Made by a program: the position numbers and the translations under genes. Under the pieces are notes generated by a model. The model was not told the DNA's origin. It made no database searches and worked only from the letters and a program-made list of their open reading frames with translations. A stretch of DNA of 64,000 nucleotides, taken from positions 41,011 through 105,010 of the forward strand of contig CAITGV010000005.1 of the NCBI GenBank assembly GCA_903892035.1, written 5' to 3'. Shown here piece by piece: positions 13,958 through 22,827 of this stretch (positions are counted from its first letter, which is position 1; the number at the start of each line of letters is the position of its first letter). Source of the DNA: an uncultured bacterium (GTDB lineage Bacteria > Patescibacteriota > Minisyncoccia > Phycocordibacterales > UBA9973).

Positions 13958-15076
13958 TTATGACTTAATATTAAGTATGACTATTTCTGATACAGTTCCT
14001 ACTCTAAGTGGAGTAACTGCAGTCCCCACTCCATAGCTCGTAGCAGAAGGTATACCGTCAGTATAGGCTACACCATGATTGTATGGCCCATAAATTTTCC
14101 TTGGAATCAAGGTAAACGGAAAACATTGTCCACCGTGTGTATGCCCCGACAACACTAGCGATACTCCTTTGCCAGTAAGAGCTCTCGTATTTTTTGGATC
14201 ATGCATAATTACTATGCTTGGCATATTTTCATCAAAACCAAGTGCTTCGAGACGCTCTTTTGTATCATCGTGCGACTCTTTTGTAGTATATGATAAACCA
14301 ATAATTTGTGTATTATTTACAATCATTTTTTTATCAGAAATGTTTGTCAGTGTTCCAATCTTTTCAAATTCATGATGAAATTTTTGATATTCTCTACTAT
14401 ATTTTTCATGATTGCCTTCAACATAAAAAGTTCCAAGGACTGCTTCAATATTTTTCAGTGGTGCAAAGCCTCGAGTATAATCAAATGTTGGCCCATCAAT
14501 CAAATCTCCGGCATGAAAAATTATATCTGGTTTTTCTTTATTTATCATCTCAACAACTTTTTTCATAAAACGATGTTTATAAACAAGTCCAATATGGGTA
14601 TCAGAAATTAGCATTACTTTTTTATCACCCCAGTGCGGTGCCAAACTTTCTGAACGTATTTCCCAATTTACAATTTTTGGACTGTCTGCAGTGAAAAGAC
14701 CATACAGAACAAGAGTAACTGCAAGAAAAAATAGAAAAAGATCGATGTAATGAATTGGAAGTGAGAGATTAAAAAAGAAATTAATTCCAAAAAATATTGC
14801 AGAAATAACCACCGCCATAAACATATATAAGACAAAACCAAACCATGTAGTACTTGCTGTATATAAAAATGATTTAATTTTTAAATATGAACTTGTATTT
14901 GAAATTGTTACTAATACAAATAAAAGTGGCAACACGATTGATAGAAGCATATAAGTTCCCGCCTCTATGGGTTGAATTAGAACACCAGAAGCCTGAAAAA
15001 CTCGAAATATAATGTATTCAGTAGTAAATAAAACTATTGGAATTATAACAGCAAAAAATGCTAATCGGTGTTTCAT
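13958..15076 (-). CDS. Membrane-anchored calcineurin-like metallophosphoesterase
   Basis: 372 aa with an N-terminal multi-TM region followed by a metallophosphatase domain (ISDTHIG, GDLIDGP, GNHE, GHTHGG motifs). Confidence 0.7.
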   Translation of the reverse strand: MKHRLAFFAVIIPIVLFTTEYIIFRVFQASGVLIQPIEAGTYMLLSIVLPLLFVLVTISNTSSYLKIKSFLYTASTTWFGFVLYMFMAVVISAIFFGINFFFNLSLPIHYIDLFLFFLAVTLVLYGLFTADSPKIVNWEIRSESLAPHWGDKKVMLISDTHIGLVYKHRFMKKVVEMINKEKPDIIFHAGDLIDGPTFDYTRGFAPLKNIEAVLGTFYVEGNHEKYSREYQKFHHEFEKIGTLTNISDKKMIVNNTQIIGLSYTTKESHDDTKERLEALGFDENMPSIVIMHDPKNTRALTGKGVSLVLSGHTHGGQCFPFTLIPRKIYGPYNHGVAYTDGIPSATSYGVGTAVTPLRVGTVSEIVILNIKS

Positions 15077-15951
15077 TTTATTTTTCTATTTCTGCCTCTT
15101 ATTTTTCGATAAATAAAACGCAAAATTATAAATATTATATAAACTAATAAAATGTAAAAAATCCATTTATGTGAAAAAATTAATGAAAGTAATTTCAGAA
15201 AAAACAATTTTACATAAGTAAAAGGTTTTTCAACGGCTCCAGGTACCACAGCAGGTGTAACAATGGTTTTACCTTTCACTACGTTTGTTGTTGGTTTCCA
15301 CGAATCAATTGTCTTTTGAGTATCAGAAATACTATTTGAAACACTATCTGAAATACTTGCGCGCGTTGAATCAATTCCACCAACGGTCGAAGATGTAGAA
15401 TCTTTTACACCTGCAGGAATTACGCTGTTTACAAAATCTTGAGTTTTTGTAAGCCCCGCAGATACTGCGTCAGAAATTACTGCCCCAGGGGCTGCGACTA
15501 TAGCATTCACTTTTTTTGCCACAAATCTTTTATCTGCGCCTGTATCACTTCGAGGTGGTACCATCGACTGCTTGCCGACACCTGTCACAACTTGATTTGC
15601 ATTTATAATTTGAGCGGAAATTGCATGGTCTCCCGCTGTCACCTGCCAGCTTATTGAAAGAGTTTGATATAAACCTGGAGCTATTGAAAAATCTTTTTTT
15701 CCTAAAATAACATTCTGATCAAAAAATTCTACAGTTCCAGAAAAAAGTCCTGTGCCTCCATTTGAAACTACAGTATATACAGTGACAGTATCACCTTCAA
15801 AAAATGGATCCTTTGAATACCAAATATTTCCAGGTATAAAACCCACATTACTTGGCGCCACCGCAGTACTATCCGCCCTCGAAAACCCTGGTATTACCAA
15901 GGTTGTGAGTATAAAGATAAACAGTAATGTTCGTTTTATTGAGAGCAACAT
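15073..15951 (-). CDS. Secreted/surface protein with a CARDB-like beta-sandwich domain and a C-terminal TM anchor
   Basis: 292 aa with a signal peptide, a CARDB-like segment (GDTVTVYTVVSNGGTG..ISWQVTAGDHAISAQI), a Ser/Thr-rich linker and a C-terminal hydrophobic helix plus basic tail. Confidence 0.45.
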   Translation of the reverse strand: MLLSIKRTLLFIFILTTLVIPGFSRADSTAVAPSNVGFIPGNIWYSKDPFFEGDTVTVYTVVSNGGTGLFSGTVEFFDQNVILGKKDFSIAPGLYQTLSISWQVTAGDHAISAQIINANQVVTGVGKQSMVPPRSDTGADKRFVAKKVNAIVAAPGAVISDAVSAGLTKTQDFVNSVIPAGVKDSTSSTVGGIDSTRASISDSVSNSISDTQKTIDSWKPTTNVVKGKTIVTPAVVPGAVEKPFTYVKLFFLKLLSLIFSHKWIFYILLVYIIFIILRFIYRKIRGRNRKIK

Positions 15952-15962
15952 TATTTAAATTT

Positions 15963-16451
15963 CTATTCCCCTTCTCCGGCGTCGAAGATTTTTTCTTGAT
16001 CTGGAAGTTCACGTTCGCCAAGTACTCGCCAGCGAATTGTTTTCATTGAAAGATACATTGCTAAAAAGAACAATACGGCGAGAATTTGATTTACAAGAAA
16101 AAATGCCTGATATTTTGGATCAGTAGTTGATGTTTGATAAGCATCCATTGCACAGTATTCAAAAACGATAAAGCCAATAAGGGCGATAACAGCATTTGCA
16201 ATCATTGCTTGCCTTTGGCGTGGACTCATCAAACCACCAAATAAAGCAAAAATAACAGCCATGGCAATTGAAATGATTGATGGAATTTTTGATATTTCAG
16301 AAAAAAATGGAAGTGTAATAATAATACCTGCACCAGCAACTAAAAAAATAGTACGAATTGCATCTCCATAATAATGACGAACAGGCTGTGAAATTTCCTC
16401 TGTGTTATCTTCTTCTTTTTTGGGCTCAAAATAATCGTAATATATTTCCAT
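15963..16451 (-). CDS. Hypothetical membrane protein (4 TM)
   Basis: 162 aa, hydrophobic, no recognisable motif. Confidence 0.4.
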   Translation of the reverse strand: MEIYYDYFEPKKEEDNTEEISQPVRHYYGDAIRTIFLVAGAGIIITLPFFSEISKIPSIISIAMAVIFALFGGLMSPRQRQAMIANAVIALIGFIVFEYCAMDAYQTSTTDPKYQAFFLVNQILAVLFFLAMYLSMKTIRWRVLGERELPDQEKIFDAGEGE

Positions 16452-16489
16452 AGCTTAATTATACTACTTTAAATATTAATGGGAAGTAT

Positions 16490-21339: not shown

Positions 21340-21813
21340 TTAATTTTGTATACTTGGTGTAATTTGAACAGACGGTGTAACTACTCTAATAAGCTTTGCG
21401 ACAATCTGACCCTGATCATCTGGTGACCCAATAACTACAACACTGTCACCGATACTTATATCACTAAATTTTATATCATCATGAAAATGTTTAATCATCG
21501 TATCATCGTCAGTTAAAATTATTTTTTCAACATTGTCCTTTCCTAATACAACTATTGAAGATGCATCAATTTTAATAATTTTTCCAATAGTGCCGTGAGG
21601 TATTTGCATATTTACGTCATGATCAGCACCAAAAATTTTATTATAATTTTCACCAATACGGGAAACGTATTCTGCTTTATGTGAACCTACTGAAACTCCT
21701 GCAGCAAAAATAAATAGTGCAACAATAAATGCACCCAAACCTATCATTATATGAATAAACACTTTTGAATCAAAAATCTTAATTGCTTCTTTTTTTATAT
21801 TTTCTTTTTCCAT
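21340..21813 (-). CDS. Membrane-anchored small protein (DUF5666-like C-terminal domain), paralog of the 17142-17579 product
   Basis: 157 aa with one TM helix and a C-terminal beta domain ending in VVVIGSPDDQGQIVAKLIRVV. Confidence 0.4.
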   Translation of the reverse strand: MEKENIKKEAIKIFDSKVFIHIMIGLGAFIVALFIFAAGVSVGSHKAEYVSRIGENYNKIFGADHDVNMQIPHGTIGKIIKIDASSIVVLGKDNVEKIILTDDDTMIKHFHDDIKFSDISIGDSVVVIGSPDDQGQIVAKLIRVVTPSVQITPSIQN

Positions 21814-21822
21814 AAATAAATA

Positions 21823-22224
21823 TTAAATTGTTTGTAATGAATTTTTAAATTTTATATGACGTATAATTTGTCGAAATGAACCGAATACAATAAATACCAA
21901 AGTTAAAGATATTGCAACCTTAAGTGCTGGTAATGATTCTGCCAAAGAAAGCATCAAATCACTTGAATACTTTGAAACTGTTCCGCCTGTAAATATCATT
22001 GAGAAGTAATCAAAAAATCCAGATTGAGAAAATTGAGTATAGAGATCTTTAAAGGCTGGCACAATAAATGCAAGTGCGAGTACAAATAAAGAACCATAAC
22101 CGAAGAGATTGATGCGGTCACTCTTTTTTTCGTGTCGACAAACACCTTGCCAAATATTTTGTGCAAGATTTTCATCGGGTAATTCTACGTTATTCTGAAA
22201 GGCTTTTTTAAGATTATTTTCCAT
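21823..22224 (-). CDS. Putative anti-sigma factor (small bitopic membrane protein)
   Basis: 133 aa with a ~35-aa cytoplasmic N-terminus followed by TM helices. It lies immediately downstream of the ECF sigma gene. Confidence 0.35.
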   Translation of the reverse strand: MENNLKKAFQNNVELPDENLAQNIWQGVCRHEKKSDRINLFGYGSLFVLALAFIVPAFKDLYTQFSQSGFFDYFSMIFTGGTVSKYSSDLMLSLAESLPALKVAISLTLVFIVFGSFRQIIRHIKFKNSLQTI

Positions 22225-22275
22225 TGCTTTATTTATATACGATTGATAATGTTATTTGGTGCATATATATGAATA

Positions 22276-22827
22276 TCAAGTTAGTAATTTCCTAAGTTGT
22301 AATACTGCACGCCGGTGTTGGCTTTTTACAGTATTAATCGACTTTCCCAATATTTCACCGATTTGATCAAAAGTCATTTCTTCTTGGTAGTATAAAGATA
22401 AAACTTCTTGATAATTTGTCGGCAGTTGTTTCAAAATCTTATTTAAACCTTCTGCATCTTTAAGTTTATCGATTGCAATTTCGGGAAGTTCTTCTTCGGA
22501 TGAAATAGTACTTTCAAAAGATTCCTCTTCTTCATTTTCTAAATTTGAAAATACGATAGATTTCTTTTTACGTAAAAAATCTATGATACTATTTCGTGCA
22601 ATGCGAAAAATCCAAGTTTTAAAACTTGCTTTATTTTCGTCAAAACGTCCAATATTTTTCCATATTTTTATAAAAATCTCTTGGACCACATCGGGCGCAT
22701 CGCTTCCAACCCCCAACCTTTTTGAAAAACTAAAAAGTAGTGGAGTATAACGCTCCACAATTTCTTTGAAAATATCATGATTTCCAGCCCTGTATTCAAT
22801 TAGTAAATCCTCATCAGTCCTTAGCAT
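22276..22827 (-). CDS. ECF-type RNA polymerase sigma factor (sigma-70 regions 2 and 4)
   Basis: 183 aa with region 2 (..YTPLLFSFSKRLG..DVVQEIFIKIWKN..) and region 4 (..QEVLSLYYQEEMTFDQIGEILGKSINTVKSQHRRA..). Confidence 0.8.
   Translation of the reverse strand: MLRTDEDLLIEYRAGNHDIFKEIVERYTPLLFSFSKRLGVGSDAPDVVQEIFIKIWKNIGRFDENKASFKTWIFRIARNSIIDFLRKKKSIVFSNLENEEEESFESTISSEEELPEIAIDKLKDAEGLNKILKQLPTNYQEVLSLYYQEEMTFDQIGEILGKSINTVKSQHRRAVLQLRKLLT

Follow-up and report, generated by a model that had tools for sequence, protein, structure and literature searches.

The window analysed here, the whole stretch of 64,000 nucleotides of contig CAITGV010000005.1 from an uncultured bacterium of the Patescibacteriota, carries 11 consecutive minus-strand genes between positions 13958 and 22827. 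According to the open reading frame (ORF) listing, the gaps between these genes range from −4 to 51 bp. A preliminary description of this region had counted 12 genes and read them as one secretion and processing module, led by a gene for an extracytoplasmic function (ECF) sigma factor and ending at a gene for a metallophosphoesterase. The ORF listing gives 11; the coordinates, the minus strand and the tight packing agreed with that description. In this window, shared direction and tight spacing are not enough to identify an operon, because 50 of its 61 genes lie on the minus strand and the cluster belongs to a same-strand run of 19 genes, which reaches on into genes for an MreD-like protein, PBP2, GreA and LysS. 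Strand and spacing alone do not set the arrangement apart from chance.

The functional unit is a cassette of seven genes, rather than all 11. It extends from 22827 to 17142 on the minus strand and encodes, in this order, an ECF sigma factor, a putative anti-sigma factor with two transmembrane (TM) segments, a protein that we call DUF1, an adaptor, an ATP-binding cassette (ABC) ATPase, a permease and a protein that we call DUF2. DUF1 and DUF2 carry an oligonucleotide/oligosaccharide-binding (OB) fold of the DUF5666 family.

22276–22827, minus strand: ECF (group 4) sigma factor, 183 aa, first gene of the cassette
21823–22224, minus strand: putative anti-sigma factor, 133 aa, proposed from its position and from gene fusions
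21340–21813, minus strand: DUF1, membrane-anchored DUF5666/OB-fold protein, 157 aa, tied to the sigma/anti-sigma pair and proposed as a co-sensor
19536–21338, minus strand: membrane fusion protein (MFP) adaptor of the MacA/YknX type, 600 aa, with an N-terminal TM helix and a helical insertion of ~265 aa
18827–19534, minus strand: ABC ATPase, the MacB-type nucleotide-binding subunit, 235 aa (ABC_tran, E 3e-35)
17607–18830, minus strand: MacB-type permease, 407 aa, with four TM segments and a large extracytoplasmic domain between TM1 and TM2
17142–17579, minus strand: DUF2, membrane-anchored OB-fold (DUF5666) protein, 145 aa, last gene of the cassette and proposed fourth subunit or partner of the pump

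These limits were drawn from the conservation of gene content and order in relatives. In five neighbourhoods of DUF2 homologues from different genomes, the same seven genes were flanked on both sides by unrelated genes, and the small proteins measured ~135 aa (the protein at +1, directly after the sigma factor), ~160 aa (DUF1) and ~145 aa (DUF2). A further 70 loci were taken from a scan of one genome per species and annotated with hidden Markov models (HMMs) built from the window proteins. After removal of repeats, the set comprised 73 loci, 64 of which came from bins labelled as Candidate Phyla Radiation (CPR) or unclassified and nine of which were of Chloroflexi/Ktedonobacteria type. The scan used alignment A2 with the pattern NSDGSLTA[TQE]; because this sampling is biased toward DUF2 proteins that bear the motif, the prevalence of the cassette among CPR genomes is not estimable from it.

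The full seven-gene order was found in 38 of the ~53 evaluable loci, which spanned Paceibacteria/Parcubacteria groups, Microgenomates groups, Saccharibacteria, Doudnabacteria, Berkelbacteria and Gracilibacteria. DUF2 lay directly downstream of the MacB permease in 59 of the 62 CPR loci with enough upstream sequence; at the Chloroflexi-type loci (L070–L079), the DUF2 relative was larger (300–370 aa) and never adjoined MacB. Downstream of DUF2, no family recurred in more than eight of 58 loci. Since the genes that follow DUF2 in the window are not retained there in relatives, the conserved unit ends at 17142. Gene order is conserved across dozens of CPR lineages for the seven genes and not for the four beyond them. 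The single module of the preliminary description thus stood for the sigma factor, the anti-sigma factor, both DUF5666 proteins and the HlyD, ABC and MacB proteins, and was too wide at its downstream end: scattering in relatives, which that description had named as a result that would count against it, was found for the last four genes only.

Two side observations concern the loci themselves. The bins of L028, L047, L048 and L064 are titled Gammaproteobacteria yet hold a CPR-type cassette, and their taxonomic labels are probably wrong. A second HlyD–ABC–MacB set, in the opposite orientation and with no detectable DUF5666 partner, lies near the cassette at L012 (2–2680) and L028 (7998–11713).

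The first three genes form the regulatory half of the cassette. The first protein matched Sigma70_r2 (E 4e-21) and r4/r4_2 only, with neither r3 nor r1.2, and thus has the sigma-2 plus sigma-4 architecture of an ECF sigma factor. Its match to TIGR02937 (136 bits against a cut-off of 42.9) bore out the preliminary assignment, and it stood at the head of the cassette in 42 of the ~53 evaluable loci. The putative anti-sigma factor occupied +1 after the ECF sigma factor in every one of 38 loci. It has a short cytoplasmic N-terminus, hydrophobic segments at residues ~40–58 and 98–117 and, between them, a conserved loop of ~40 aa. Its family is marked by the motifs PPxxLxxxIxxRI near the N-terminus and SGFxxFxSLxFSD...LSLxESLP in the loop. 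The preliminary description had called it a bitopic putative anti-sigma factor; the position after the sigma gene fits, and the two hydrophobic segments do not. An anti-sigma function is suggested by this position and by fusions, described below, whose N-termini weakly match the family.

The third protein, DUF1, scored just under the Pfam cut-off for DUF5666 (PF18914; E 1.3e-5, 25.8 bits against 27), and DUF2 scored above it (32.1 bits). The two are true paralogues according to BLASTP (E 1e-7) and cross-HMM comparison (E 8e-28). The earlier recognition of two DUF5666-like paralogues was therefore sound, with the family threshold passed by the 145-aa protein and narrowly missed by the 157-aa one. 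A shared C-terminal tail motif that had been singled out in them is real and corresponds to the last two strands of the DUF5666 OB-fold. DUF1 nonetheless forms an ortholog group of its own, with the juxtamembrane motif GyrKAxFxxxWGeNYxrNF.

The genes that precede the adaptor vary among the ~53 evaluable loci, and this variation separates the two paralogues. The front end comprised the ECF sigma factor, the 2-TM protein and DUF1 at 38 loci and the ECF sigma factor with a longer +1 protein at four. At six loci, an OmpR-type response regulator and a 2-TM histidine kinase (HisKA and HATPase_c domains at L043) directly preceded the adaptor, and at five there was no regulator. DUF1 was present at all 38 loci with the ECF/anti-sigma pair and at none of the 11 with a two-component system or no regulator; DUF2 accompanied the pump under every regulator type. 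Because DUF1 occurs with the sigma pair only and DUF2 occurs with the pump whatever the regulator, we assigned DUF1 to the switch and DUF2 to the pump.

Gene fusions point the same way for DUF1. In L020, L025 and L052, a single +1 gene encodes a protein that begins with an anti-sigma-like region, continues with four TM segments and ends in a DUF5666-like domain; the fourth of the longer +1 proteins, that of L010, has the same composition by eye only. The fused domain matched the DUF1 HMM with domain E-values of 1e-5 to 1e-6 in a small search set and, for L052, matched Pfam DUF5666 at E 0.013. Taken as Rosetta-stone evidence, the fusions suggest that DUF1 works with the anti-sigma factor. At some of the loci with a fused anti-sigma factor or a two-component system, small secreted helical proteins with Gly/Arg-rich C-termini replace DUF1 (L020 5813–6250, L052 5597–6061 and L023 6051–6536).

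Other genes lie upstream of the regulatory half in the window. A divergent sigma-70-family gene (22931–23803, plus strand; 290 aa with regions 1.2, 2, 3 and 4) starts 103 bp from the ECF sigma gene and was not linked to the cassette in the relatives examined. Further upstream, a member of the 8xMP (octameric membrane protein) family, a family of recent definition, (25055–25483, minus strand) adjoins YceI-like and HAD genes.

The remaining four genes form the pump half. The adaptor matched HlyD_D23, HlyD_3, the YknX-type barrel and TIGR01730 (162 bits) and, in sequence comparison with the PDB, MacA (4dk1, 5nik). Its AlphaFold2 (AF2) model, with a predicted local distance difference test score (pLDDT) of 83, contained the four canonical MFP domains: lipoyl, barrel, membrane-proximal and helical. 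More specifically, residues 101–366 form an all-helical insertion of seven helices, about twice the size of the MacA hairpin, and residues 562–600 form a disordered tail (pLDDT <50) that is rich in Ser/Thr and then in Gly. In a Foldseek search, the best match of the model was MacA in MacAB–TolC (9qgy; E 8.5e-17). These data agree with the preliminary naming of an HlyD adaptor with a poly-Gly tail. The adaptor family comprises at least 3454 clusters at E≤1e-20, has a median length of 598 aa and is unusually conserved, with 50–57% identity among the top 120 clusters; 43 of 56 homologues share the Ser/Thr-rich then Gly-rich tail, ending in R-x-x-G-R. As modelled, the long helical region suggests a long conduit through the wall zone. 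Gly/Arg-rich low complexity recurs in the cassette, at the adaptor C-terminus (19536–19655) and in the DUF2 linker (17400–17480).

The ATPase and the permease are both of MacB type, as the preliminary description had them. The ATPase gene most likely starts at the ATG at 19534, in agreement with the ENA gene call. Its product is a bare nucleotide-binding domain with no C39 peptidase domain, and its best NCBIfam match was the MacB nucleotide-binding domain (E 3.5e-77), followed by DarD and LolD. It is encoded separately from the permease, whose start its stop overlaps by 4 nt. The permease matched PF12704 MacB_PCD over residues 21–246 (E 1.6e-48) and PF02687 FtsX over residues 287–400 (E 2.4e-21). 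Against the PDB, it matched MacB (5gko; E 1e-67, residues 8–405), Spr0695 (5xu1; E 4e-39) and YknZ (5f9q). The permease architecture, the ATPase of the MacB/LolD/FtsE clade and the MacA-like adaptor are those of a MacB-type (type VII) ABC exporter. No gene resembling TolC or another outer membrane factor was found in the cassette or its conserved neighbourhood. Since the TolC-family exit duct is missing, as in MacAB-like pumps of Gram-positive bacteria, the system is MacAB-like rather than a tripartite MacAB–TolC pump.

According to structure prediction, DUF2, the last gene product of the cassette, consists of a TM helix at the N-terminus, an extracytoplasmic OB-fold and, between the two, a flexible linker rich in Gly and Arg. 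Its family, 1249 clusters at 50% identity (E≤1e-30), conserves FYGGMxYG at the end of the TM helix and NSDGSLTA, almost invariant, near the C-terminus. The idea that the small proteins are ordinary lipoproteins, which the preliminary description had raised as a result that would count against it, was rejected: DUF1 and DUF2 contain no Cys and, for DUF2, none occurs anywhere in 30 aligned sequences. Among DUF2 relatives are P0257 (688 aa), P0273 (1331 aa) and P0258, P0260 and P0262 (~270 aa); in some of these, the OB domain is repeated in 2, 8 or 15 tandem copies.

The four genes that follow the cassette in the window are neighbours unrelated to it.

16490–17122, minus strand: CPBP/Rce1-like intramembrane protease, 210 aa, adjoining the cassette and not a conserved part of it
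15963–16451, minus strand: 4-TM protein, lineage-specific neighbour
15073–15951, minus strand: 292-aa protein with a signal peptide and a C-terminal anchor, lineage-specific neighbour
13958–15076, minus strand: membrane metallophosphoesterase (Metallophos, E 1.9e-15), lineage-specific neighbour

The protease and phosphoesterase names of the preliminary description were upheld. The protease is a member of PF02517 (48.9 bits against 22.4) and carries the catalytic-type motifs EExxxR, FxxxH and HxxxN/D in the form of QEFAYR, in which the first Glu is replaced by Gln, FMFLH and HSVLN. Its gene begins 19 bp downstream of DUF2 on the same strand. Nevertheless, none of the four genes follows the cassette in any of the 58 related loci with downstream sequence, and the 4-TM, 292-aa and phosphoesterase genes adjoin it only in the window's own genome (L001, L002). 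These counts, and a −10-like element of its own, remove the CPBP gene from the module in which it had been placed. A CARDB identity for the 292-aa protein was not supported by HMM searches, in which the protein matched no Pfam family even at E≤5 and none in NCBIfam. Homologues of the phosphoesterase end another recurring cluster, comprising MarR, two HlyD/YknX-like genes and a major facilitator superfamily (MFS) transporter, which lies 4–8 kb downstream of the cassette at L006 (14386–19637) and also at L058, L059 and L066 (Paceibacteria).

The promoter-like elements of the region divide the cluster at the same point.

22835–22843, minus strand: extended −10-like element TGCTATACT, whose end lies 7 nt ahead of the ECF sigma ATG
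17129–17134, minus strand: TATAAT, 6 nt before the GTG start of the CPBP gene
16458–16463, minus strand: TATAAT, 6 nt before the start of the 4-TM gene
13929–13951, no strand assigned: perfect hairpin ACCCCTCCTAAATTAGGAGGGGT, 10-bp stem with six G–C pairs, between the phosphoesterase and MreD-like genes

Judged by its sequence and position, TGCTATACT is likely a leaderless promoter for the cassette, and in ~10 of 37 related loci a similar TGnTAnnnT is found no more than 26 nt from the start of the sigma gene. A −10-like hexamer (TAnAAT or TATAnT) ends 5–9 nt before the start codon of 20 of the 61 genes in the window, as compared with 3.3% of all ATG triplets; examples lie at 11867–11872, 13877–13882, 16458–16463, 17129–17134 and 22835–22840. 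No Shine–Dalgarno sequence precedes any of the 19 genes between 9.8 and 26.4 kb. The hexamers close to start codons and the lack of Shine–Dalgarno sequences indicate leaderless transcription, which appears to be the norm for mRNAs of this genome. Among the seven cassette genes, only the sigma gene has a −10-like element at its start. With the elements before the CPBP and 4-TM genes, this predicts three transcription units: the sigma gene to DUF2, the CPBP gene, and the 4-TM, 292-aa and phosphoesterase genes. Just outside the cluster, −10-like elements also precede the MreD-like and GreA genes; TGGTATAAT, which follows the hairpin and lies 8 nt before the MreD-like start, marks the next unit. 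The hairpin has a T-rich tail on the plus strand and no T-run on the minus (coding) strand, and thus does not qualify as a canonical intrinsic terminator of the phosphoesterase unit or the genes before it. A scan for intrinsic terminators within the cluster found nothing convincing.

We propose that the cassette encodes a signal-inducible, four-component MacB pump with a three-protein sensor, in the manner of σW–YknWXYZ or CnrYXH–CnrCBA, and consider this reading probable. The pump half would be a type VII ABC exporter, MacAB-like and of monoderm type, built from the separate ATPase, the MacB permease, the long TM-anchored adaptor and DUF2 as fourth component. In the absence of a signal, the 133-aa protein would hold the sigma factor. 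An extracytoplasmic cue, most likely the pump substrate (for instance, a membrane-active peptide or an amphiphile of host or competitor origin), would be read by the OB domain of DUF1 and relayed to the outer loop of the anti-sigma factor. The sigma factor would then be freed and transcription of the pump raised. By MacB-style mechanotransmission, the pump would drive the compound out of the outer leaflet or the wall space, and DUF2 would help the permease or adaptor to handle the substrate or would regulate it. Regulator swapping is typical of signal-inducible detoxification pumps. Accordingly, the exchange or loss of the regulator among the related loci favours an inducible accessory pump.

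Several results weigh against this proposal. The 133-aa protein belongs to no known anti-sigma family, as it had no match in Pfam (E≤5), in NCBIfam or in a PDB-sequence profile search; the best matches to anti-sigma searches (E 0.16 and 0.38) were unrelated proteins and not credible. The fusion evidence consists of weak HMM scores from three or four genomes, and the contact between DUF2 and the permease is a proposal. An ECF-type promoter (GGAAC-N16-CGT) that had been anticipated upstream of 22827 was not found, and GAAC-N15–18-CGT was absent from the intergenic regions of the module, by a crude test that may miss divergent ECF promoters of the CPR. An unbiased search for 4-mer/4-mer dyads in 37 related upstream regions yielded nothing above shuffle level. 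The element before the sigma gene resembles a housekeeping extended −10 element, and this and the negative promoter searches speak against autoregulation. Nor is the cassette universal: for the cultivated Saccharibacterium S. epibionticum, a word search of annotation tables, including those of transposon sequencing (Tn-seq), turned up neither DUF5666 nor an ECF sigma factor. Finally, the fact that tiny genomes widely keep the cassette is also compatible with a housekeeping role in envelope biogenesis.

In such a role, the exporter would move a surface lipid, glycolipid, lipoprotein or wall polymer, as do DevBCA, LolCDE and LptB2FGC; DUF2 would be a bitopic acceptor or carrier resembling LptC or LolA, and the sigma pair would provide homeostatic feedback. 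Consistent with this, many lineages whose genomes are very small keep the cassette, conservation of the adaptor is unusually high, and the NCBIfam matches of the ATPase and adaptor to DevA/DevB and LolD were also good. Members of the MacB superfamily, moreover, commonly use extracytoplasmic partner proteins (discussed in PMC5768738). However, swapping of the regulator between ECF and two-component types, or its loss, would be expected of inducible accessory pumps more than of essential biogenesis machines. Alongside the cassette, no biosynthetic genes are conserved, and at least one cultivated Saccharibacterium apparently lacks it, according to the annotation word search. We regard envelope biogenesis as a plausible but less likely function.

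A mechanotransmission role of the FtsEX type, in which the MacB pair would actuate extracellular DUF2 or a recruited enzyme to remodel the wall or surface, is improbable. FtsX-domain permeases do include non-transporters, and DUF2 resembles a conserved extracytoplasmic partner. However, a full-length MFP adaptor, the hallmark of conduit-forming pumps, is always present, which speaks against a non-transport role. The permease is also nearer to MacB than to FtsX, for which the NCBIfam matches were E 1e-5 or weaker, and no hydrolase is conserved nearby.

The preliminary suggestion that the DUF5666 proteins are cargo, matured by the CPBP protease and exported by MacB/HlyD in the manner of a bacteriocin locus, is very hard to sustain. 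CPBP proteases do accompany some bacteriocin-immunity loci, and the protease encoded beside DUF2 in this one genome keeps catalytic-type motifs. However, no CPBP gene is conserved after the cassette, the one in the window has its own −10-like element, and the ATPase has no C39 domain. DUF1 and DUF2 have uncleaved-looking TM anchors and conserved, folded OB domains and carry neither a leader nor a double-Gly motif; in some lineages, a fusion joins DUF1 to the anti-sigma factor. MacB pumps, moreover, handle substrates already outside the cytoplasm. In its make-up, the locus is not one for export and maturation of a bacteriocin or peptide, and DUF2 is probably not cargo.

Returning to the inducible pump, we put forward one extension of it tentatively, as a conjecture that may well be wrong. 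The two paralogous membrane-anchored OB-folds might couple sensing to export, with DUF2 handling the substrate at the pump and DUF1, free-standing or fused to the anti-sigma factor, reading the same ligand or the state of the pump to gate the sigma factor, and the long Gly-tailed adaptor might serve as a conduit through the CPR envelope. If so, pump and switch would share one recognition module, and the coupling of an ECF switch to its target would be of a new type. This could account for the ability of ultra-small epibionts to withstand membrane-active molecules, or to deliver them, where they meet the host.

In Patescibacteria, genomes are tiny, regulators are few and hardly any envelope system has been characterised. 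Since seven genes are kept in order across many lineages in spite of such genomes, the cassette is probably important near or on host cells. The analysis provides a context and a testable role for two large families annotated only as 'hypothetical' or DUF5666, defines a previously unrecognised putative anti-sigma family and describes a MacB-type pump with an OB-fold protein as proposed fourth component. It also shows that the CPBP protease beside the cassette should not be counted as part of the pump system. Literature searches yielded no earlier account of this cassette, of MacB pumps with a DUF5666 partner or of the putative anti-sigma family.

Among known systems, the cassette resembles YknWXYZ of Bacillus subtilis, a four-component MacB-type pump that is σW-dependent and protects against the SdpC toxin (PMC8144471, PMC4887032). 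Both have a permease (YknZ), a separate ATPase (YknY), a TM-anchored MFP (YknX) and no outer membrane, and both have a fourth small membrane component and ECF sigma control (PMC8144471, PMC4887032). Consistent with this likeness, the window adaptor matches YknX-type Pfam families and the permease matches the YknZ domain. By contrast, the fourth component of the cassette is the bitopic OB-fold protein DUF2, whereas that of the B. subtilis pump is the polytopic, Yip1-type YknW; the cassette also encodes its sigma and anti-sigma factors in cis, and its adaptor is ~200 aa longer with a Gly-rich tail. No Yip1-family, YknW-type gene is present in the cassette, and the likeness is one of function, not membership.

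Spr0693-0694-0695 of Streptococcus pneumoniae is a MacAB-like system in a Gram-positive bacterium that confers resistance to LL-37; its adaptor, Spr0693, forms a hexameric nanotube through which substrates pass from the outer face of the membrane to the wall zone (PMC5768738). The three core proteins are shared with the cassette, with the permease match to Spr0695 given above, and the DUF5666 partner and the cis-encoded sigma system are not. The helical barrel of Spr0693 is 56 Å high; the corresponding insertion in the cassette adaptor spans ~265 aa. The best sequence and structure matches of the permease and adaptor are to MacB and MacA of Escherichia coli MacAB–TolC (5nik, 5gko, 9qgy), on which the newly described accessory lipoprotein YbjP provides a further example of a small envelope-anchored protein on a pump (PMC13082787).

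The regulatory half has its own counterparts. In CnrYXH–CnrCBA of Cupriavidus metallidurans and SigY–YxlC–YxlD of B. subtilis, as proposed for the cassette, an ECF sigma factor is accompanied by a short membrane anti-sigma factor and an extra small membrane or periplasmic protein that regulation requires; CnrX is a membrane-anchored periplasmic sensor. The Cnr switch, too, is encoded beside the efflux pump under its control. SigY (ECF31) needs the anti-sigma factor YxlC at +1 together with YxlD at +2, and the ECF291/CnrH group adjoins the metal efflux operon that it controls (PMC7826278). The Cnr pump, however, is of the resistance–nodulation–division (RND) type and that of the cassette is ABC/MacB. 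No sequence relationship was found between the cassette proteins and CnrY/CnrX or YxlC/YxlD, and neither system has a counterpart to the third protein of the cassette in being an OB-fold paralogue of a pump component. Overall, the system is of a known kind, an ECF- or two-component-controlled MacAB-like pump. What appears to be new is the CPR-wide cassette with its OB-fold fourth component, the paralogous OB-fold protein tied or fused to the anti-sigma factor and the long Gly-tailed adaptor.

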